A stretch of 64,000 nt of DNA from the NCBI RefSeq assembly GCF_044324875.1, contig NZ_CP172185.1. One strand, written 5' to 3'. This stretch comes from Escherichia coli (GTDB taxonomy: Bacteria; Pseudomonadota; Gammaproteobacteria; Enterobacterales; Enterobacteriaceae). A program made the translations under genes and the position numbers. The notes beneath the pieces are model-generated. The model was not told the origin of the DNA. It saw nothing but the letters and a program-made list of their open reading frames with translations, and made no database searches. Below, piece after piece: positions 6,884-62,493 of the stretch. Position 1 is the stretch's first letter. Each line of letters opens with the position of its first letter.

Positions 6884-7107
6884 TTTATATCAATAATACC
6901 ATTTACAAAAATATGCATTAATTAATAGATGTGATAAATATTTAATATGCTTAAGTATTTGTTGTATTTATATTGCAATAGTTGATTTGTTTTAAATCAA
7001 TAAAACAATATGTTTACATTGCGGCAACTTTTTTGATGTGAGAAATTTGTTTCCAAGAGATACAGACTCTTAACAACCAAAAAATAAATTTTATTAAGGA
7101 ACATATT
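6884..7107 (+). promoter_or_regulatory. AT-rich upstream region of the yehDCBA fimbrial operon (probable promoter, typical of nucleoid-protein-silenced loci)
   Basis: Extended AT-rich tract immediately upstream of yehD; no exact promoter mapped. Confidence 0.35.
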
Positions 7108-7650
7108 ATGAAACGTTCAATTATTGCTGCCGCTGTCTTTTCTTCTTTTTTTATGAGCGCTGGGGTATTTGCCGCAGACGTTGATACCGGAACATTAACC
7201 ATTAAAGGGAATATTGCAGAATCTCCGTGTAAATTCGAAGCGGGTGGCGATTCAGTAAGTATTAATATGCCAACTGTACCAACCACTGTCTTTGAAGGTA
7301 AAGCTAAATACTCGACCTATGATGATGCAGTCGGTGTAACCAGCAGCATGTTAAAAATTAGCTGTCCGAAAGAAGTTGCTGGTGTAAAACTCTCGTTGAT
7401 TACCAACGATAAAATAACCGGAAACGATAAGGCGATAGCCAGTAGCAACGATACCGTGGGGTACTATCTCTATTTAGGTGATAACAGCGATGTCCTGGAT
7501 GTTTCTGCACCTTTTAACATTGAGAGTTATAAAACAGCGGACGGTCAATATGCTATTCCGTTTAAAGCAAAATACCTGAAGCTGACAGATAATTCAGTGC
7601 AATCAGGTGATGTGTTATCTTCTCTGGTTATGCGTGTGGCGCAGGATTAA
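7108..7650 (+). CDS. yehD: Fimbrial major subunit (chaperone-usher pathway)
   Basis: 180-aa ORF, signal peptide MKRSIIAAAVFSSFFMSAGVFA, fimbrial subunit size and composition. Confidence 0.88.
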   Translation: MKRSIIAAAVFSSFFMSAGVFAADVDTGTLTIKGNIAESPCKFEAGGDSVSINMPTVPTTVFEGKAKYSTYDDAVGVTSSMLKISCPKEVAGVKLSLITNDKITGNDKAIASSNDTVGYYLYLGDNSDVLDVSAPFNIESYKTADGQYAIPFKAKYLKLTDNSVQSGDVLSSLVMRVAQD

Positions 7651-7730
7651 TAAATAAAATTTCAAGTTTCTCCAGGTAATAAACATGGCTGCTATCCCCA
7701 TGGCGGCCTTTTAATTTAAGAGGCATTAAG

Positions 7731-8405
7731 ATGAAAGGATTATTTGCTTTACTCATTTCTTCTATGGTCCTTCCTGCACATGCCGGTATTGTTATCTACG
7801 GGACGCGTATTATTTACCCGGCAGAAAATAAAGAAGTGATGGTGCAGTTGATGAATCAGGGAAACCGTTCTTCGCTGCTGCAGGCGTGGATTGATGATGG
7901 TGATACGTCGTTACCACCAGAAAAAATTCAGGTTCCTTTCATGTTAACGCCACCAGTGGCAAAAATAGGGGCAAATTCCGGGCAGCAAGTAAAAATCAAA
8001 ATTATGCCGAATAAACTGCCCACTAATAAAGAGAGCATTTTTTATCTGAATGTTCTGGATATTCCACCAAATAGTCCAGAGCAAGAGGGCAAGAATGCAC
8101 TGAAATTTGCAATGCAAAACAGAATCAAATTGTTTTACCGGCCTGTGGGTATTGCACCGGTAAATAAAGCGACATTTAAAAAGTTACTGGTAAATCGCAG
8201 TGGCAATGGATTGGTGATAAAAAATGAATCAGCAAATTGGGTGACGATTTCGGATGTCAAAGCTAATAATGTCAAAGTCAATTATGAAACTATTATGATT
8301 GCCCCCTTAGAAAGTCAGAGTATTAATGTCAAAAGTAATAATGCGAATAACTGGCATCTGACCATTATCGATGACCATGGCAACTATATTAGTGACAAAA
8401 TTTAA
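7731..8405 (+). CDS. yehC: Periplasmic fimbrial chaperone (PapD-like)
   Basis: 224-aa ORF with signal peptide; RBS aagagg 8-13 nt upstream; no in-frame upstream ATG before a stop. Confidence 0.88.
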   Translation: MKGLFALLISSMVLPAHAGIVIYGTRIIYPAENKEVMVQLMNQGNRSSLLQAWIDDGDTSLPPEKIQVPFMLTPPVAKIGANSGQQVKIKIMPNKLPTNKESIFYLNVLDIPPNSPEQEGKNALKFAMQNRIKLFYRPVGIAPVNKATFKKLLVNRSGNGLVIKNESANWVTISDVKANNVKVNYETIMIAPLESQSINVKSNNANNWHLTIIDDHGNYISDKI

Positions 8406-13884: not shown

Positions 13885-14035
13885 TCTGCGATTTATCATC
13901 GCAACCAAACGACTCGGGGTGCCCTTCTGCGTGAAGGCTGAGAAATACCCGTATCACCTGATCTGGATAATGCCAGCGTAGGGAAGTCACGGACCACCAG
14001 GTCATTGCTTCTTCACGTTATGGCAGGAGCAAACT
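13885..14035 (+). promoter_or_regulatory. TPP riboswitch (THI-box) in the thiM leader
   Basis: ggggtgcccttctgcgtgaaggctgagaaatacccgtatcacctgatctggataatgccagcgtagggaagtc (13916-13988) matches the thiM THI element; located directly upstream of thiM; 5' boundary approximate. Confidence 0.85.
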
Positions 14036-21825: not shown

Positions 21826-21859
21826 TACGCCTTATACGAACAGCACTACCCCGTATGAC

Positions 21860-21890
21860 GGAAAAGGCGTTTACGTCGCATCCGGCATAA
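21860..21890. repeat. REP-like palindromic element
   Basis: gaaaaggcgtttacgtcgcatccggcat resembles REP consensus (gccggatgcgacg...). Confidence 0.45.
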
Positions 21891-21910
21891 AAACACGCGC
21901 ACTTTGCTAC

Positions 21911-21938
21911 GGCTTCCCTATCGGGAGGCCGTTTTTTT
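21911..21938 (+). terminator. Rho-independent terminator after fbaB
   Basis: ggcttccc(tatc)gggaggcc hairpin followed by T7. Confidence 0.7.
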
Positions 21939-21998
21939 GCCTGTCATTCTGATTAATTTTCGAATTGTCGTTTTTGTGATCGTTATCTCGACATTTAA

Positions 21999-24198
<2,200 letters not shown>

Positions 24199-24207
24199 GG
24201 ACGGTAT

Positions 24208-24660
24208 ATGACTAACCTGTTTGTTCGTAGCGGAATTTCTTTTGTCGATCGTAGCGAAGTTTTAACCCATATCGGTAATGAGATGCTCGCGAAAGGTGTG
24301 GTTCATGATACATGGCCACAGGCATTAATTGCCAGAGAAGCAGAATTCCCTACCGGGATAATGCTTGAGCAGCACGCCATTGCAATACCGCATTGTGAGG
24401 CGATTCATGCTAAGTCGTCAGCCATTTATCTGTTAAGGCCAACAAATAAAGTTCATTTTCAGCAAGCGGATGATGATAACGACGTGGCGGTATCGTTGGT
24501 TATTGCGTTAATTGTGGAAAATCCGCAGCAGCAATTGAAACTTTTACGCTGTTTATTTGGCAAGTTACAACAGCCCGAGATCGTCGAGACACTAATCACT
24601 CTTCCTGAAACCCAGTTAAAGGAATACTTCACAAAGTATGTTTTAGATTCAGACGAATAA
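24208..24660 (+). CDS. gatA: PTS galactitol-specific EIIA
   Basis: 150-aa ORF, operon position. Confidence 0.9.
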   Translation: MTNLFVRSGISFVDRSEVLTHIGNEMLAKGVVHDTWPQALIAREAEFPTGIMLEQHAIAIPHCEAIHAKSSAIYLLRPTNKVHFQQADDDNDVAVSLVIALIVENPQQQLKLLRCLFGKLQQPEIVETLITLPETQLKEYFTKYVLDSDE

Positions 24661-24690
24661 ATCCCTCTGTAACAATAAAAAGGACTATTT

Positions 24691-24975
24691 ATGAAACGCA
24701 AGATTATTGTCGCTTGCGGAGGCGCGGTTGCGACCTCTACGATGGCGGCGGAAGAAATTAAAGAGTTGTGTCAGAGTCATAATATTCCTGTTGAATTAAT
24801 CCAGTGTCGGGTTAATGAAATAGAAACCTATATGGATGGCGTGCATTTGATATGCACCACTGCCAGGGTGGATCGAAGTTTTGGCGATATTCCGTTAGTT
24901 CACGGCATGCCTTTTGTTTCTGGTGTCGGTATCGAAGCATTACAAAATAAAATTCTGACTATCTTACAGGGGTGA
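24691..24975 (+). CDS. gatB: PTS galactitol-specific EIIB
   Basis: 94-aa ORF with N-terminal Cys ([11 protein letters not shown]). Confidence 0.9.
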
Positions 24976-24978
24976 CCT

Positions 24979-26334
24979 ATGTTTTCAGAAGTCATGCGTT
25001 ATATTCTCGACCTCGGCCCTACGGTGATGCTGCCAATTGTCATCATTATTTTTTCTAAAATATTAGGCATGAAGGCAGGCGATTGCTTTAAAGCGGGTCT
25101 GCATATCGGGATTGGCTTTGTTGGCATTGGCCTTGTGATTGGCTTAATGCTGGATTCCATTGGTCCGGCGGCGAAAGCGATGGCGGAAAATTTCGACCTG
25201 AATCTGCATGTGGTCGATGTCGGTTGGCCGGGCTCTTCACCAATGACCTGGGCGTCGCAAATTGCGCTGGTGGCGATTCCGATTGCGATTCTGGTTAACG
25301 TGGCGATGCTACTGACCCGTATGACGCGGGTGGTAAATGTTGATATCTGGAATATCTGGCATATGACCTTCACCGGCGCATTGCTGCATCTGGCAACCGG
25401 TTCATGGATGATAGGGATGGCGGGTGTGGTAATTCACGCGGCGTTTGTTTATAAGCTCGGCGACTGGTTTGCCCGCGATACCCGAAATTTCTTTGAGCTG
25501 GAAGGCATTGCTATTCCGCACGGTACGTCGGCGTATCTGGGGCCAATTGCGGTGCTGGTGGATGCTATCATCGAGAAAATCCCAGGCGTTAACCGTATTA
25601 AATTTAGCGCCGACGATATTCAGCGCAAATTTGGTCCGTTTGGCGAGCCTGTCACCGTGGGTTTTGTGATGGGGCTGATTATCGGCATCCTCGCGGGTTA
25701 CGATGTCAAAGGTGTATTGCAGCTGGCGGTAAAAACGGCGGCAGTTATGCTGCTGATGCCACGGGTGATTAAACCCATCATGGATGGTTTAACGCCTATC
25801 GCTAAGCAGGCCCGTAGTCGTTTACAGGCGAAGTTCGGCGGTCAGGAGTTCCTGATTGGCCTTGATCCGGCGTTGCTGCTGGGGCATACGGCGGTGGTAT
25901 CGGCAAGCCTGATTTTTATCCCGCTCACCATTTTAATTGCTGTTTGTGTTCCGGGTAATCAGGTACTGCCGTTTGGCGACCTTGCCACCATCGGTTTCTT
26001 TGTGGCGATGGCGGTCGCCGTGCATCGTGGAAATCTGTTCCGCACCTTAATCTCGGGTGTCATCATTATGAGCATCACCCTGTGGATCGCGACGCAAACT
26101 ATTGGTTTGCACACCCAACTGGCGGCTAACGCTGGGGCGTTAAAAGCCGGAGGCATGGTGGCATCAATGGATCAGGGCGGTTCTCCCATTACCTGGTTAC
26201 TGATTCAGGTTTTCTCCCCGCAAAATATTCCCGGTTTCATTATTATCGGTGCCATTTATCTTACCGGTATTTTCATGACCTGGCGTAGAGCGCGCGGCTT
26301 TATTAAACAAGAGAAAGCCGTTCTCGCAGAATAA
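24979..26334 (+). CDS. gatC: PTS galactitol-specific EIIC permease
   Basis: 451-aa polytopic membrane protein. Confidence 0.92.
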   Translation: MFSEVMRYILDLGPTVMLPIVIIIFSKILGMKAGDCFKAGLHIGIGFVGIGLVIGLMLDSIGPAAKAMAENFDLNLHVVDVGWPGSSPMTWASQIALVAIPIAILVNVAMLLTRMTRVVNVDIWNIWHMTFTGALLHLATGSWMIGMAGVVIHAAFVYKLGDWFARDTRNFFELEGIAIPHGTSAYLGPIAVLVDAIIEKIPGVNRIKFSADDIQRKFGPFGEPVTVGFVMGLIIGILAGYDVKGVLQLAVKTAAVMLLMPRVIKPIMDGLTPIAKQARSRLQAKFGGQEFLIGLDPALLLGHTAVVSASLIFIPLTILIAVCVPGNQVLPFGDLATIGFFVAMAVAVHRGNLFRTLISGVIIMSITLWIATQTIGLHTQLAANAGALKAGGMVASMDQGGSPITWLLIQVFSPQNIPGFIIIGAIYLTGIFMTWRRARGFIKQEKAVLAE

Positions 26335-26499
26335 TTTTTACCTGAGGGGGAGTTTATCCCCCTTAATAATCAGGAGTTTTTATGAAATCAGTGGTGAATG
26401 ATACTGATGGTATCGTGCGCGTTGCCCAACGAGTCATTCCTGAAATTAAACATCAGGATGAGGTGCGGGTAAAAATTGCCAGCTCGGGATTATGTGGTT

Positions 26500-26508
26500 C
26501 CGATTTAC
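26500..26508. repeat. IS1 target-site duplication (left copy), ccgatttac
   Basis: Identical 9-mer abuts both IS1 termini. Confidence 0.9.
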
Positions 26509-26523
26509 GGTAATGACTCCAAC

Positions 26524-27027
26524 TTATTGATAGTGTTTTATGTTCAGATAATGCCCGATGACTTTGTCATGCAGCTCCACCGATTTTGAGAACGACAGCG
26601 ACTTCCGTCCCAGCCGTGCCAGGTGCTGCCTCAGATTCAGGTTATGCCGCTCAATTCGCTGCGTATATCGCTTGCTGATTACGTGCAGCTTTCCCTTCAG
26701 GCGGGATTCATACAGTGGCCAGCCATCCGTCATCCATATCACCACGTCAAAGGGTGACAGCAGGCTCATAAGACGCCCCAGCGTCGCCATAGTGCGTTCA
26801 CCGAATACGTGCGCAACAACCGTCTTCCGGAGCCTGTCATACGCGTAAAACAGCCAGCGCTGGCGCGATTTAGCCCCGACATAGCCCCACTGTTCGTCCA
26901 TTTCCGCGCAGACGATGACGTCACTGCCCGGCTGTATGCGCGAGGTTACCGACTGCGGCCTGAGTTTTTTAAGTGACGTAAAATCGTGTTGAGGCCAACG
27001 CCCATAATGCGGGCAGTTGCCCGGCAT
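26524..27027 (-). CDS. insB: IS1 transposase InsB (expressed as InsAB' fusion by -1 frameshift)
   Basis: 167-aa [61 protein letters not shown]... Confidence 0.93.
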
Positions 27028-27221
27028 CCAACGCCATTCATGGCCATATCAATGATTTTCTGGTGCGTACCGGGTTGAGAAGCGGTGTAAGTGAACTGCA
27101 GTTGCCATGTTTTACGGCAGTGAGAGCAGAGATAGCGCTGATGTCCGGCGGTGCTTTTGCCGTTACGCACCACCCCGTCAGTAGCTGAACAGGAGGGACA
27201 GCTGATAGAAACAGAAGCCAC
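26946..27221 (-). CDS. insA: IS1 InsA (transposition inhibitor / N-terminal part of transposase)
   Basis: 91-aa [45 protein letters not shown]... (zinc finger). Confidence 0.93.
26964..26970 (-). promoter_or_regulatory. IS1 programmed -1 ribosomal frameshift motif (A6C)
   Basis: Minus-strand ttaaaaaactc at the insA/insB overlap (plus-strand gtttttt). Confidence 0.7.
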
Positions 27222-27276
27222 TGGAGCACCTCAAAAACACCATCATACACTAAATCAGTAAGTTGGCAGCATCACC

Positions 27277-27285
27277 CCGATTTAC
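27277..27285. repeat. IS1 target-site duplication (right copy), ccgatttac
   Basis: Identical to 26500-26508. Confidence 0.9.
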
Positions 27286-28298
27286 CCAGAATATTTAAAA
27301 ATGGTGCACATTATTATCCAATAACGTTAGGCCATGAATTTAGCGGCTATATTGATGCTGTGGGATCCGGTGTTGATGATTTACATCCTGGCGATGCGGT
27401 TGCCTGTGTGCCGTTATTACCCTGTTTTACTTGTCCAGAGTGTTTGAAAGGGTTTTATTCCCAGTGCGCAAGATATGATTTTATTGGCTCGCGGCGTGAT
27501 GGTGGATTTGCTGAGTATATTGTCGTTAACCGAAAAAATGTCTTTGCTCTACCCACGGATATGCCTATTGAGGATGGGGCTTTTATTGAACCGATTACCG
27601 TTGGCCTGCATGCTTTCCATTTAGCGCAAGGTTGTGAGAATAAAAACGTTATTATTATTGGTGCCGGAACCATTGGCCTGCTGGCCATTCAGTGCGCTGT
27701 CGCGCTGGGAGCAAAGAGTGTGACGGCTATCGACATTAGCTCAGAAAAACTGGCACTGGCAAAATCTTTCGGTGCGATGCAAACATTTAACAGCCTTGAA
27801 ATGAGCGCGCCGCAAATGCAGAGCGTTTTACGCGAACTGCGTTTTAATCAGCTTATCCTCGAGACGGCTGGCGTCCCGCAAACCGTCGAACTGGCGGTAG
27901 AGATTGCCGGGCCTCATGCCCAGCTGGCGCTGGTGGGCACGTTGCATCAGGATCTGCATTTAACATCGGCAACGTTTGGCAAAATATTGCGTAAAGAGCT
28001 GACGGTTATCGGCAGTTGGATGAACTACTCCAGCCCTTGGCCGGGGCAGGAGTGGGAAACGGCGTGCCGGTTGCTGACAGAACGTAAGTTAAGCCTGGAG
28101 CCATTAATCGCTTACCGTGGAAGCTTTGAAAGCTTCGCCCAGGCGGTGCGTGACATCGCTCGTAATGCTATGCCGGGCAAAGTGTTGCTCATTCCCTGAA
28201 ACCGCGGGCCAGCGTGATGCTGGCCCGGTATTGTGCAAAACAGATCATTCACCAATGGTCCCCCTTCGTTTACACTAGCCACAATTGAATATGGGTAA

Positions 28299-29078
28299 AT
28301 GACGATGAATTCATTCGAGCGAAGGAATAAGATCATCCAATTAGTGAATGAACAGGGAACCGTGCTTGTTCAGGATCTGGCGGGAGTATTTGCTGCCTCG
28401 GAAGCGACAATCCGTGCCGATTTGCGCTTTCTCGAACAAAAAGGCGTGGTTACGCGCTTTCATGGCGGTGCGGCGAAAATAATGTCCGGTAATAGTGAAA
28501 CCGAGACCCAGGAAGTTGGGTTTAAAGAGCGATTTCAGCTCGCCAGCGCGCCAAAAAACAGAATAGCGCAGGCGGCAGTCAAAATGATCCACGAAGGGAT
28601 GACCGTTATTCTCGACAGCGGAAGTACGACAATGCTTATCGCCGAAGGATTAATGACCGCCAAAAATATCACGGTGATTACCAACAGTCTCCCGGCAGCA
28701 TTTGCCCTTTCCGAAAATAAAGACATTACTCTGGTCGTCTGTGGTGGGACCGTCCGCCATAAAACACGCTCGATGCATGGTTCCATTGCCGAGCGTTCAT
28801 TGCAGGATATTAATGCCGATTTAATGTTTGTCGGTGCTGATGGTATTGATGCGGTTAATGGTATTACGACCTTTAATGAAGGTTATTCGATTAGCGGGGC
28901 GATGGTTATAGCCGCAAATAAAGTGATTGCCGTTCTCGATTCATCGAAATTTAATCGTCGCGGTTTTAATCAGGTACTGCCAATCGAAAAAATTGACATT
29001 ATTATTACCGATGATGCCGTGTCAGAGGTGGATAAACTGGCATTGCAGAAGACACGGGTGAAATTAATTACGGTGTAG
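28299..29078 (+). CDS. gatR: DeoR-family repressor of the gat operon, apparently intact
   Basis: 259-aa uninterrupted ORF with N-terminal DeoR HTH and C-terminal sugar-binding domain. Confidence 0.85.
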   Translation: MTMNSFERRNKIIQLVNEQGTVLVQDLAGVFAASEATIRADLRFLEQKGVVTRFHGGAAKIMSGNSETETQEVGFKERFQLASAPKNRIAQAAVKMIHEGMTVILDSGSTTMLIAEGLMTAKNITVITNSLPAAFALSENKDITLVVCGGTVRHKTRSMHGSIAERSLQDINADLMFVGADGIDAVNGITTFNEGYSISGAMVIAANKVIAVLDSSKFNRRGFNQVLPIEKIDIIITDDAVSEVDKLALQKTRVKLITV

Positions 29079-29089
29079 TATTGCTCTGT

Positions 29090-29123
29090 ATGCCGGATAA
29101 AGTTTTTACACCGCATCCGGCAT
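29090..29123. repeat. REP-like palindrome / bidirectional hairpin between convergent gatR and yegS
   Basis: atgccggat ... atccggcat inverted repeat. Confidence 0.5.
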
Positions 29124-29159
29124 TACGGATTCTCCCTGGTTCAAGAGAGAATAGTGTGA

Positions 29160-30059
29160 TTAACGCAACAATGGGCAATCTGGTGGTAATCGACAACGCA
29201 ACGCCGCCGGAAGTATTTCAATATGAAAGTTTTGTCCGCTCAACGGTTCGCCATCAAGATTAAAAGTGATTTCGTGTGGGGCTTGTATATCAAACCACGA
29301 CGAAGCGCCTTCGATAATATTCGGGTTATCTTCGTCAGATTTTAATGTTGATACGAGAGCCGGAAGAATTTCATCGCCGGTAAAAATGCGCAGTTGCAGC
29401 AAGCCATCGTTAATTAACGCGTTCGGGCACAATTGCTGACCGCCACCGGCCTGACGCCCGTTACCAATACCAATGACCAGGGCGTCACCTTGCCAGTGAA
29501 AGTTTTCACCGCGGATCTCACAACGGTCCGGTTGCAGAGTATCCATGCGCATTAAGCCATGAATGATGTAAGAGACGCCACCCAGCGCGGCTTTTAATTT
29601 TTCCGGCGTTTCTGTGGTAATACGCGTCCCAAATCCGCCTGTCGCCATATTAATAAAACAGGTTTGTTTGTTGACCTGCGCCATATCTATCGCAATGGCG
29701 TCACCGGCAATTGCCAGTTTCAGCGCCTTATCCAGTGCCTCAGGAATCCTTACACTGGTGGCAAAATCATTGGCGGTTCCTAATGGCAAAATTCCTAGCG
29801 CGGGTATGTCATCCCCCTCACACTGAATCAACGCCGTAGAAACTTCATTAATGGTGCCATCGCCACCACCGGCAATCACCGTTGCGACGCCCAACTTCCG
29901 GGCCTCCTCTACATATCGTGCGGCATCGCCTTTCTCCCAGGTGACCCGCACATGGATCGTCATTCCTTCCTCACGCAACAGCATAATTGCTTCGCGCAAT
30001 GGTAAATTGTCAGTACTTTTGCCATTAAGAATCAGTAAGCTGGCGGGAAATTCTGCCAT
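29160..30059 (-). CDS. yegS: Lipid kinase YegS (DAG-kinase catalytic domain family)
   Basis: 299-aa ORF; GGDGT motif ([12 protein letters not shown]). Confidence 0.9.
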
Positions 30060-30791: not shown

Positions 30792-30961
30792 GAATATTTT
30801 TTGGTAAGCGTCAAACATGCGCGTTCTGGTTGTGCTTAGCCGGAACCTGTGCGAGCACGATGCCGTTACGTGAAAGGCATCGTGCTATGAAGGGAGATTC
30901 TATCGATGTGGTCAATGGAAGACGGTCACCTGGGATCAATCCGTCTCTATGGTTTATGCAC

Positions 30962-31048
30962 AAAAAATAAGCCCGTGTAAGGGAGATTACACAGGCTAAG
31001 GAGGTGGTTCCTGGTACAGCTAGCATTTTATGGGTTATGTTTTTCAGC
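30962..31048 (-). ncRNA. cyaR: CyaR (RyeE) Hfq-dependent sRNA
   Basis: Minus-strand sequence gctgaaaaacataacccataaaatgctagctgtaccaggaaccacctccttagcctgtgtaatctcccttacacgggcttatttttt matches CyaR as I remember it, including the terminator hairpin and U-tail. Confidence 0.9.
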
Positions 31049-31079
31049 GAAACAGATGATAACCTTAATAAATGCAGCT

Positions 31080-32494: not shown

Positions 32495-32695
32495 AATTCT
32501 CTCGTTCTGATGACAGGTCAGATCCGCTTCACCTGATGAAGCGGCCAGGGGAGTGCCCCCACTTTAAGGGCGGGCATTGTAGCGCAATCGTCGGGGTTGG
32601 CTCCAGTGTAATTGTGATGAGCTTTTCGATGCCTGGCGTACAATTGACATCAGAATTGAGTATATTTACGACCGTGAATGCTAAGGAGTTAAAAC

Positions 32696-33301
32696 ATGTG
32701 GATGTTAAAGAAGGGAATCACGCTGGCTCTGTTGGTTCTGTTTTCTCTGCCCGCTACTGCCGGTCTTTCGCTGGAGGAGACTGCTCGTAAGGTGATTATC
32801 GGCTTTCAGCAAAAAGATGCTCAATTAATCAACTCGTTAATTGATAAAAAAACGGGGTTGTATGTTCTCTTCCAGCGTGGCGCTTCGATGGATGTCGAAA
32901 ATTTTAAGTCAATTGATTTTAAAACGCCTGTTCCCGAGTATTTGCTGTGGCCTTCGGCAGGGGAACATATTCCGCGAGATGAAGAGTTTGATAAGAAAAC
33001 TATCCCGGAATTTGACTGTGAACGTGGCTGGAATAAGCACGGATATTTTATTAGCAGCAGCGATACACACCATAAAGTCAGCCGTAATTTGGTCTTCACG
33101 CAGATGTTTGGTTCACCGCGAAACACTATTTCTGATGCGCAGATTGCCGCAGCGCGTCGAATGGAGTACGGGGCCGTGCGTGTGGTCGCTGCGCCAGAAG
33201 GGGGTAGCGATGGACTGGTATTTTATTTAAGTCAACTTTACGGTTATGACCGTGACTGGTATCTGACGGTGGTGGATCAGATTGGTGATTGTGGGGCGTG
33301 A
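32696..33301 (+). CDS. Hypothetical secreted protein (201 aa), unknown function
   Basis: Strong RBS aaggag 7 nt upstream; predicted Sec signal peptide MWMLKKGITLALLVLFSLPATA; two Cys in mature part; not recognised as a K-12 gene. Confidence 0.6.
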   Translation: MWMLKKGITLALLVLFSLPATAGLSLEETARKVIIGFQQKDAQLINSLIDKKTGLYVLFQRGASMDVENFKSIDFKTPVPEYLLWPSAGEHIPRDEEFDKKTIPEFDCERGWNKHGYFISSSDTHHKVSRNLVFTQMFGSPRNTISDAQIAAARRMEYGAVRVVAAPEGGSDGLVFYLSQLYGYDRDWYLTVVDQIGDCGA

Positions 33302-33331
33302 TAAAGATTTATTCGCCCGCAAGCAGTGATG

Positions 33332-34732
33332 CTATTTAAAAGGTATGTAACCCCTTAATCTGTTGTGAAGTTCCGGATTGCGGGTAAAAAGCGCCTGAAG
33401 TTGCTGACGCTGAAGAGCATTCGGTTGAATGCCCGAAAGATTGAAATTGCGTTGCCATATCGCGAGCTGTTTACCTGCAAATTCTTCAGTTAGCTTGTGT
33501 TGCGATTGCAGAAGAAGAATTAAACCGTCCCATTTGTTCAAGTTATGATACAACCGACAATATGCGCAAGCATGTTTAACTGACGGTGCGTTTTCCAGCA
33601 ACTGACGTATTTCCTCGAACGTGAGCGGAACTCGACACCATACACAGATGTTAACCATAAATCGAAGCCCGGAGGCGTCCGGGTTAGCTAGTGTGGTCAG
33701 AATAATCCCTTTGACACCACCATCAGGATTGGCTTTCGCAAGAATATACATAGCGGCTAATCGCAGTGGGAATACATCCTGTGATAATCCCCATTCAGCC
33801 AGTTTTAAAATATTGGCATCATGAATGGAGTCCAGCCCGTATAAAGCTGCCCGGCGCTGTGAGGGAGTATATTCAGTCGAGGTGACAACATGACGCCAGA
33901 ATTGCGCAACATCCATGACGTCATTAAGCATGTTTTTAGCGCGTAGACGGATCAACATATTGTTATCCAGCAGTAATGCGCTGTACAGAGCCGGAGGAAT
34001 TTCTATAGCTCGGTCAGTAAGGCTAAACAACGTTGCTTGTCGAATACGCGGCCAGCGGTCTTTTAACAGACGAGTTAATACCGCTTCGCTTAACGATAAT
34101 TGTTGACGCAGCCAGTGGGTGACTGCCAGCATTCGTAAACCTTCGTCGGGCTGCTTGAGTATTAAAAGCAGCGAAGATTCATCATTAAAGTAGCCATATT
34201 CAATCAGCGTTTGTAATACTGCGCGGGAAAGTTTTTTATCAGGGCAAGTAAGCCAGCACGTTAATTGCGGGCGGTTATTTTCTTCCAGCAAGAAGCTCAG
34301 TATCTCGTTTACAAATGCACGATGATCGTAACGCTGGCATTGGAGAAGGTTACGTATCATGGGAAGATTAACCGCAAATGCCGCTGCATTCTTATCCTTC
34401 TTTAAATGACGTAACGCTATGGTTGCAGCAAGGCGAACCTCTTTTACCCAGTCATTAGCTGCAAGTAATAATTCTTCTATAGCTGCAACATCCTCTTTTT
34501 GTCCCAGACATTGCACGGCCTTTTCTCGTATATATCCATTGTGGTGATGGGTAAGCTGGCAAAGAACCAGAGTATCGTTGAGATCACAATCATGCGCTAT
34601 ATAATTGCCTGGATCGGCTATCATCGCCTGGAGTTGTTGCTGGATAAGAAATAATTCACAGTCAACAGAATTATTCATTTCGACGTTAAACAAAACCCTG
34701 CGTGTAAATAATGTACGCAATCCTTTGAGCAT
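33332..34732 (-). CDS. Hypothetical cytoplasmic protein (466 aa) with HEAT/armadillo-like repeats, unknown function
   Basis: Long ORF with recurring alpha-helical repeat motifs (IREKAVQCLGQ, VRLAATIALRHL, LRMLAVTHWL, QRRAALYGLDSI, LRLAAMYILAKA); aagga RBS; no nucleotide-binding motifs seen. Confidence 0.6.
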   Translation of the reverse strand: MLKGLRTLFTRRVLFNVEMNNSVDCELFLIQQQLQAMIADPGNYIAHDCDLNDTLVLCQLTHHHNGYIREKAVQCLGQKEDVAAIEELLLAANDWVKEVRLAATIALRHLKKDKNAAAFAVNLPMIRNLLQCQRYDHRAFVNEILSFLLEENNRPQLTCWLTCPDKKLSRAVLQTLIEYGYFNDESSLLLILKQPDEGLRMLAVTHWLRQQLSLSEAVLTRLLKDRWPRIRQATLFSLTDRAIEIPPALYSALLLDNNMLIRLRAKNMLNDVMDVAQFWRHVVTSTEYTPSQRRAALYGLDSIHDANILKLAEWGLSQDVFPLRLAAMYILAKANPDGGVKGIILTTLANPDASGLRFMVNICVWCRVPLTFEEIRQLLENAPSVKHACAYCRLYHNLNKWDGLILLLQSQHKLTEEFAGKQLAIWQRNFNLSGIQPNALQRQQLQALFTRNPELHNRLRGYIPFK

Positions 34733-34854
34733 AATTTTCCTTATCAGTTATGAGGAGAAAACTCATTTCATGATTAATAATTTCTTGAGGGATAGTAACT
34801 CTGTGGTGAGAGAAAATAAAGCCGGACGCCAACAACCCACGCCCGGCATCGTAA

Positions 34855-46579: not shown

Positions 46580-46720
46580 AACGGGAAAGCCCCTCCCGAG
46601 GAAGGGGCCTTAAATAAGGAAAGGGTCATGATGAAGTGGATCATCATCGTGGTGCTCTTAGTGATTAGCTACCCAGCATACTAAGACTACCAGGGCGGGG
46701 GAAACCCCGCTCTACCCTCA
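46580..46720 (-). ncRNA. Putative Sib antisense sRNA, copy 1 (antitoxin of the overlapping ibs)
   Basis: Minus-strand promoter ttgaca-17-tacttt (weaker -10 than copies 2 and 3); terminator hairpin gcccct...aggggc then tttcccgttt; boundaries approximate. Confidence 0.45.
46628..46684 (+). CDS. Ibs-family small hydrophobic toxin, variant MMKWIIIVVLLVISYPAY (copy 1)
   Basis: 18-codon ORF at the same position in the repeat unit as the other two ibs genes. Confidence 0.6.
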   Translation: MMKWIIIVVLLVISYPAY

Positions 46721-46907
46721 CTCCTGAAAGTATGCCTTCACGATAAGATTGTCAATCTGCAGGCTTTGCAGTCTGCGATCCTGCCAGCAAATATTCTTTG
46801 CGAGACGTTACGCAATAATCACACTGGAAACTATTTTATCCGCAAGTCAGCGATAGACTGCATACAGGGCGAAAGGAGGTAAGTCGACGATTTCAGCGGG
46901 ACGCTGA

Positions 46908-47048
46908 AACGGGAAAGCCCCTCCCGAGGAAGGGGCCTTAAATAAGGAAAGGGTCATGATGAAGCTACTCATCATCGTGGTGCTCTTAGTCATAAGCTTC
47001 CCCGCTTACTAAGACTACCAGGGCGGGGGAAACCCCGCTCTACCCTCA
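46908..47048 (-). ncRNA. sibB: Putative Sib antisense sRNA, copy 2 (SibB-like)
   Basis: Minus-strand promoter ttgaca-17-taattt (-35 at 47078-47083, -10 at 47055-47060); terminator hairpin 46917-46936; boundaries approximate. Confidence 0.55.
46956..47012 (+). CDS. ibsB: Ibs-family small toxin MMKLLIIVVLLVISFPAY (IbsB-like)
   Basis: 18-codon ORF; matches my recollection of IbsB. Confidence 0.65.
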   Translation: MMKLLIIVVLLVISFPAY

Positions 47049-47237
47049 CTCCTGAAATTATGCCTTCACGATAAGATTGTCAATCCGCAGGCTTTGCAGT
47101 CTGCGATCCTGCCAGCAAATATTCTTTGCGAGTCGTTACGCAATAATCACAGAGGAAACTATTTTGTTCACGCGTTAGCGATAGACTGCATTCAGGGCGA
47201 AAGGAGGTAAGCCGACGATTTCAGCGGGACGCTGAAA

Positions 47238-47383
47238 CGGGAAACCCTCTCCCGGAGAAGAGGGCTTTTAATAAGGAAAGGGTTATGATGAAGCACGTCA
47301 TCATACTGGTGATACTCTTAGTGATTAGCTTCCAGGCTTACTAAGAACACCAGGGGGAGGGGGAAACCTCTCCCTAACCCTCA
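47238..47383 (-). ncRNA. sibA: Putative Sib antisense sRNA, copy 3 (SibA-like)
   Basis: Minus-strand promoter ttgaca-17-taattt (-35 at 47413-47418, -10 at 47390-47395); terminator hairpin ccctct...agaggg then tttcccgttt; boundaries approximate. Confidence 0.55.
47285..47344 (+). CDS. ibsA: Ibs-family small toxin MMKHVIILVILLVISFQAY (IbsA-like)
   Basis: 19-codon ORF. Confidence 0.65.
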   Translation: MMKHVIILVILLVISFQAY

Positions 47384-47564
47384 CTCCTGAAATTATGTCA
47401 CTCCGCCCTTAGTGTCAATCGACGGCTCTCCGTTCTTGCGAGGCGAATAGCAAAATTTTCTGCGCCGCCGGGCCTAATTCTGAAAGTTGCTTTGCCTGCT
47501 CATATTTCATTGTTGCAGTCGGTATGATACCGGACCTCAATAATTCTCTAAGAAAGGATTTCTT

Positions 47565-62013: not shown

Positions 62014-62481
62014 AGTAAGTACAAAACCTATTCGTTGTATGACAAATGTCACAATTCGATCATGGATAAATCGGGGCAAAAATGCAATGTTGCAGCACTA
62101 TTTATCTCATATTATTTGAGGGTAATAACCTCACATTATCCCTGAATTAAAAGTGGTAATAATAAAATATTATTTAAGAAATATCGCATGTGGAGACGCA
62201 ATATTAAATATTGTCAACCTAAAGAAACTCCTAAAAACCATATTGAATGACACTTAATATAATTCTTAAAAATAGCCAATTGCCGAATTGTTACCTTGCC
62301 TGCTATTCCGTTAGCTGTAACACTTCCTCCTGCATTATTGGAGAGCCAATATTCAATTACCATAATGTCACCTTATATTCGGAAGTTAATTTCCGTAATA
62401 ACCCTTTCTCATCAACGACTGCATGCTGAGAGGGTGTGAAAAATTAAACTAAATCAGTGTATTGGTAGCTAAAAAGCCAGG

Positions 62482-62493
62482 GGCGGTAGCGTG
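62482..62493 (+). promoter_or_regulatory. ops element (RfaH recruitment site) within a JUMPstart sequence upstream of wza
   Basis: ggcggtagcgtg matches ops consensus GGCGGTAGnnTG; in the long 5' leader of the colanic acid cluster. Confidence 0.8.

Follow-up and report, generated by a model that had tools for sequence, protein, structure and literature searches.

The gatR repressor gene is uninterrupted and gatD is split by IS1 in the galactitol locus of an Escherichia coli strain

GatR, the DeoR-family repressor of the galactitol (gat) operon of Escherichia coli, was reportedly first described by Nobelmann and Lengeler in 1996, in J Bacteriol 178:6790. In the reference strain K-12 MG1655 (NC_000913.3), the gene (b4498) is annotated as a pseudogene made of two fragments separated by IS3E, an element of 1,258 bp inserted after nucleotide 299 of gatR with a 3-bp duplication, GTC. 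The gatC gene of MG1655 is also annotated as a pseudogene (positions 6922–8279 of the K-12 locus, L001), so that the reference strain has two gat lesions. The insertion in gatR makes the gat operon of K-12 constitutive (PMC5850726; PMC10878103), and regulation is restored when the K-12 pseudogene is exchanged for the gatR native to E. coli HS (PMC5850726). The element in K-12 gatR is named IS1 in one sentence of the latter work (PMC5850726), whereas the RefSeq record has IS3E. K-12 is an atypical reference for this gene. The complete E. coli genomes surveyed number 5,426; gatR has a match in 5,109 of them, and in 4,756 at least 80% of the gene lies in one piece and in one place. The split cases that were sampled include K-12 derivatives (with IS3E) and the B/BL21 lineage (with IS1). 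In E. coli the whole gene is both ancestral and in the majority.

Other, independent lesions of the gat locus are found elsewhere in the species. In BL21, IS1 lies in gatR after about nucleotide 237 and gatD is intact. In other genomes it is a gat structural gene that has been hit by IS1, and gatR is intact: OXA-181 has IS1 in gatD after nucleotide 159, H32 has IS1 in gatD after nucleotide 537 together with a frameshift in gatZ, and an IS1-flanked deletion running from gatZ to gatC (gatZ'-'gatC) is present in SLK172 as in a group of isolates from chickens. IS1 is joined to adjoining gat-locus DNA in at least 53 of the 5,426 complete genomes; in the species-wide count of split gatD genes, pieces flanking a 768-bp IS1 were merged into one place. 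During experimental evolution in mice, insertions of IS elements in gat genes are recurrent and account for 79% of events (PMC3945185), and reference tables list only about 60% of E. coli as dulcitol-positive, about 40% being negative (PMC10132054). Hence, an intact gatR next to a gat structural gene hit by IS1 is an already known configuration, and the locus described here has exactly this configuration.

The DNA analysed (the window) is a stretch of 64,000 nucleotides of E. coli contig NZ_CP172185.1. Its plus strand carries at 28299–29078 an ATG-started open reading frame of 259 codons with no internal stop. A second in-frame ATG at 28305 gives a protein of 257 amino acids (28305–29078), and this is the start chosen in the annotation of RefSeq relatives. 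The product has the two domains that define the DeoR/GlpR family, an N-terminal helix-turn-helix (HTH_DeoR, PF08220, residues 8–60, E = 1.3e-16, 60.5 bits for a Pfam cut-off of 21) and a C-terminal sensor domain (DeoRC, PF00455, residues 85–238, E = 9.2e-51, 172 bits for a cut-off of 31.8). Its best NCBIfam matches are the models of the DeoR-type repressors AgaR and SrlR, each under the equivalog cut-off, and there is no GatR-specific model among the NCBIfam matches of the frame. The motifs DSGST (residues 104–108) and D212/K215/F216, which are invariant among 26 orthologues, are present. The minus-strand frames of 83 amino acids inside gatR were set aside, being shadows cast in another frame by a conserved coding sequence.

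The gene occupies the expected place, directly 3' of gatYZABCD on the same strand and convergent with yegS, and the order gatD–gatR–yegS is common to all the relatives examined (K-12, M217, strain 1190, and the genomes with IS1 lesions). It is the same gene, at the same locus, as b4498 of MG1655. For the comparison, the K-12 gene was reconstructed by joining the two fragments and dropping one copy of GTC, which gives a clean gene of 774 nucleotides and 257 codons. The window differs from it at 17 of the 774 nucleotides (97.8% identity), and the proteins differ by a single residue, T202I, with 256 of 257 residues matching and neither frameshift nor stop in the window gene. The same 256 of 257 residues match the wild-type protein WP_001295426.1, which shares with the window protein the HTH_DeoR plus DeoRC architecture and its place between gatD and yegS; wild-type GatR was put to functional use, from E. 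coli HS, in published work (PMC5850726). The spacer upstream of the wild-type gene is identical to that of the window, and T202I is the lone derived difference. A reading made from the sequence alone had described an uninterrupted DeoR-family frame of 259 amino acids after gatD, and had stated that K-12 gatR is split by an insertion sequence and that its operon is constitutive. All of this holds: the open frame and its domains bear out the first statement, IS3E is seen in NC_000913.3, and the constitutive operon is on record in the literature cited above.

The lesion of this locus is in gatD (26382–28199), which is interrupted after codon 42 (nucleotide 126) by a complete IS1. The 5' fragment (26382–26508, plus strand) consists of 42 codons followed by one IS1-derived codon and a stop. 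The element (26509–27276, minus strand) is 768 bp long, has the terminal inverted repeats GGTAATGACTCCAACTTATTGAT and GGTGATGCTGCCAACTTACTGAT, and is bordered by a perfect 9-bp target-site duplication, CCGATTTAC, at 26500–26508 on its left and at 27277–27285 on its right. An IS1 is typically about 768 bp long, with imperfect terminal inverted repeats of about 23 bp and a programmed −1 frameshift at an A6C motif. Accordingly, the copy in gatD has the length, the classical repeats, and the target duplication of an IS1. Its two frames, insA (26946–27221) and insB' (26524–27027), are open and both match the IS1 transposase model NF033558 (E = 7e-26 and 1.7e-42), and the A6C motif AAAAAAC is at nucleotide 306 of the element. 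It is the only copy of IS1 in the window. A Shigella origin, which an IS1 may bring to mind, finds no support in a single copy over 64 kb or in nearest relatives that all bear the label E. coli. The 3' fragment of gatD (27277–28199, plus strand) matches the galactitol-1-phosphate 5-dehydrogenase model NF007642 over profile positions 68–344 of 347 (E = 2.6e-174); even this longest fragment is partial and falls short of a full-length GatD equivalog. When IS1 and one copy of the duplication are removed in silico, a GatD of 346 amino acids is obtained, with seven differences from that of K-12. Since IS1 splits the gene, no full-length product is possible, and the insertion should abolish galactitol-1-phosphate dehydrogenase, which predicts from the sequence a galactitol (dulcitol) negative strain.

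IS1 is multicopy in E. coli, with a median of 10 matching places per genome, and assemblers can misplace repeats. One might thus ask whether the element was put into gatD by a faulty assembly, the locus being in truth wholly wild type. This is extremely unlikely, because the 9-bp target duplication is perfect at both junctions, the element is complete and in register, and an independent draft assembly breaks at exactly the same junction. In that draft (L008, GCA_025289245.1), the contig stops 5 bp past the right end of IS1, inside the duplicated target, as expected if the same insertion is present in a short-read assembly.

The window and MG1655 are reversed with respect to each other: gatR is split, gatC is a pseudogene and gatD is intact in MG1655, whereas in the window gatR is uninterrupted and gatD is broken. 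The sequence-only reading had noted that here the regulator is whole and the enzyme gene broken, which the analysis of gatD confirms, and had called this a different route to an altered Gat phenotype. This last statement needs a caveat. The gatD lesion alone does alter the predicted phenotype, but the consequences of the two lesions are opposite, as the one in K-12 causes the loss of regulation and the one in the window the predicted loss of catabolism. Hence, they are not two routes to one outcome.

The remainder of the operon is in good order. The five gat genes upstream of gatD (22053–26334, plus strand) are full length (284, 420, 150, 94, and 451 amino acids), have no internal stops, and each encodes a protein identical to its counterpart in a closely related genome with an intact operon (L006, see following). 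The spacer between fbaB and gatY (21826–22052, plus strand), which contains the gat operon control region, is nearly identical to that of K-12 over its proximal 150 or so nucleotides, and lacks a 78-nucleotide REP-like unit present in the K-12 spacer (L001, 11206–11512). A small cluster of differences between the two spacers (TTC--TGATTAATTTTCGAATTG in the window versus CTCCTCGAATAATTTTCATATTG in K-12) lies just upstream of the conserved promoter-proximal region of gatY.

In the spacer between gatD and gatR (28200–28304, plus strand), 105 nucleotides separate the stop codon of gatD (28199) from the gatR frame. Over the 121 nucleotides from 28190 to 28310, the window shows 100% identity to K-12, M217, and BL21, while the flanking coding DNA differs by 2–4%, and this suggests a constrained regulatory element. 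The spacer contains a GC-rich hairpin with a 9-bp stem (28205–28227, dG −21 kcal/mol). A promoter and terminator scan of 28100–29300 found no site resembling the sigma-70 consensus in the spacer, the only matches being inside gatR and at chance level. The conservation and the hairpin are consistent with the presence of the gatD terminator and of a promoter/operator of gatR, which we presume to lie there. Part of the transcription of gatR may instead come from read-through from the gatY promoter, in which case IS1 may be polar on gatR; as the consensus scan finds no promoter in the spacer, such an effect has to be kept in mind.

The age of the insertion can be estimated from close relatives. 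One genome (L006, GCA_044161135.1), with 99.96–99.97% identity to the window along 12.8 kb, shares its gatR allele with I202. Its gatD target site is empty, with a single CCGATTTAC, and its gatYZABCD genes are intact. The empty site in such a near-identical relative indicates that the IS1 insertion is recent and confined to a sub-lineage. Since the insertion in gatD there has been neither the time nor any evident pressure for gatR to decay, and this accounts for its integrity. On the preferred account, gatR is whole since nothing has happened to it, and it is the laboratory strains, K-12 with IS3E and B with IS1, that carry insertions. Very probably, then, the window has an ordinary wild-type E. 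coli gatR, and the sole lesion of its gat locus is a recent IS1 in gatD.

The T202I allele is the one new detail of the locus. The dominant GatR allele in E. coli is WP_001295426.1, found in at least 1,000 contigs, whereas the exact protein of the window is found in 188 contigs of other public assemblies. Of the contigs with I202 that were read, 21 of 23 have the gene neighbourhood of the near-identical relative. The allele is absent from the 5,426 complete RefSeq E. coli genomes, where the best match to the gene is 99.9% identical, with the single difference C611T (counted from 28299). Residue 202 is T in M217 and strain 1190, both of them close relatives, which makes I202 the derived state. 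Position 202 is among the least conserved of the sensor domain in the 26 orthologues (71–93% identity), where the residues seen are T, A, C, S, or D, never Ile. In an AlphaFold2 model of GatR of moderate confidence (pLDDT 76), residue 202 ends a helix (197–202) and precedes a strand (204–210), which speaks to its location but not to function. The only solved homologue detected by sequence is DeoR, the repressor of the deoxyribose operon of E. coli (structure 7L6L, E = 3.6e-11, residues 83–254), whose C-terminal domain is a DeoRC sensor as in GatR. DeoR is a distant paralogue with another effector, and it tells nothing specific on the sensing of galactitol.

If the substitution impaired GatR, repression of the operon would be lost, as it is in K-12, and the insertion in gatD could have been selected to stop a costly or toxic constitutive galactitol metabolism. 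The change is indeed derived and restricted to a lineage, Ile is bulkier than any residue found at this site in the orthologues, and the residue closes a helix before a strand that leads toward the invariant D212/K215/F216. In addition, gat-negative mutants of constitutive K-12 sweep in the mouse gut (PMC3945185). However, position 202 is poorly conserved, as just described. The allele is also carried by 188 contigs, and an intact operon is seen in most of the ones that were read, so that I202 predates IS1 and persists without loss of the operon. Furthermore, the knockouts selected in mice are in the gatY regulatory region, gatZ, gatA, and gatC, none being reported in gatD (PMC3945185). An impaired repressor followed by selected loss of gatD is therefore possible but disfavoured, and we regard it as very unlikely. 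From the variability of the site among orthologues, T202I is probably neutral, and GatR(I202) is assumed in the following to be active as a repressor.

An ordinary gatR whose integrity simply predates the recent insertion also has to be weighed against the idea that the gene is kept whole by selection. With a working gatABC transporter but no GatD, galactitol-1-phosphate would be trapped in the cell upon uptake, so that selection would favour a functional repressor that holds transport closed, and there would be epistasis between gatR and gatD. Such an interaction is in line with the inhibition of growth of constitutive K-12 by galactitol, and with gut-selected gat-negative alleles that fall in the transporter, the aldolase, or the promoter, with none reported in gatD (PMC3945185). 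Moreover, all the natural gatD::IS1 genomes inspected (the window, OXA-181, and H32) have a full-length gatR, while K-12 and BL21, in which gatR is disrupted, both have an intact gatD. Yet the sample is tiny: with about 88–93% of genomes having an intact gatR, three or four cases out of four are expected by chance. The insertion is also so recent, given a 99.97% identical relative with an empty site, that purifying selection had no time to act, and the repressor would give no protection once galactitol appears if it is galactitol-1-phosphate that acts as inducer. A literature search on the toxicity of galactitol-1-phosphate and on the phenotypes of gatD mutants returned nothing relevant. Selective maintenance of gatR in this strain is very unlikely. 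The broader notion that an intact GatR, possibly altered by I202, makes the loss of gatD tolerable by shutting the galactitol PTS and so avoiding poisoning by galactitol-1-phosphate is itself improbable. If it were true, the loss of gatD would be limited to E. coli backgrounds with an intact gatR, and epistasis between regulatory and structural genes would shape the natural Gat polymorphism.

Under the preferred reading, a wild-type regulator next to a recently interrupted gatD, the behaviour of the locus can be outlined from family knowledge and the published genetics of K-12. GatR would bind the control region of gatY and repress gatYZABCD until galactitol or its phosphate appears; a search of the accessible literature did not find the nature of the inducer. 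For the window protein, repression of the gatY promoter and its release by galactitol or its phosphate are putative functions, transferred from what is published for the T202 allele. The genes of the PTS transporter and of the regulator stay intact beside the dead gatD. The operon would accordingly remain regulated while the oxidation of galactitol-1-phosphate is lost, resulting in a Gat-negative strain, and galactitol-1-phosphate might build up if the operon is induced.

Several other features of the window differ from K-12 or have a known counterpart in it. Between yegQ/trhP and yegP there is an insert of 2.2 kb (32586–34820), which K-12, M217, and strain 1190 all lack. It contains a frame of 201 amino acids on the plus strand (32696–33301), with a hydrophobic N-terminus resembling a signal peptide, and a HEAT-repeat frame of 466 amino acids on the minus strand (33332–34732). 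At full length the insert is found in only 5 of the complete E. coli genomes (5,426), and in part in about 2,200, where, among the matches listed, it is mainly the HEAT gene that is covered. The gene of CyaR is present (30965–31050, minus strand), and the cryptic P2 remnant PR-X adjacent to it in K-12 (ogrK and yegZ; L001, 1265–1850) is absent (30903–30965 in the window). At 46613–47418 (minus strand) there are three tandem SIB_RNA copies, of the Sib/Ibs type I toxin–antitoxin family, versus two (sibA and sibB) in K-12. A TPP riboswitch (13905–14001, plus strand) and a JUMPstart element (62455–62493, plus strand), both identified with Rfam, correspond respectively to the leader of thiMD and to the region upstream of wza in K-12, and are expected housekeeping elements.

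The IS1 insertions in gatD of the window, OXA-181, and H32 are at nucleotides 126, 159, and 537, respectively. Since the sites differ, these are independent IS1 events, and the window is a further independent example of a known pattern, in which E. coli gains or loses the use of galactitol through IS elements, a polymorphism that serves as a model of adaptation to the gut (PMC3945185; PMC5850726). The significance is small beyond annotation: the strain should be recorded as the carrier of a gatD::IS1 pseudogene, predicted to be dulcitol-negative, with an intact regulator.
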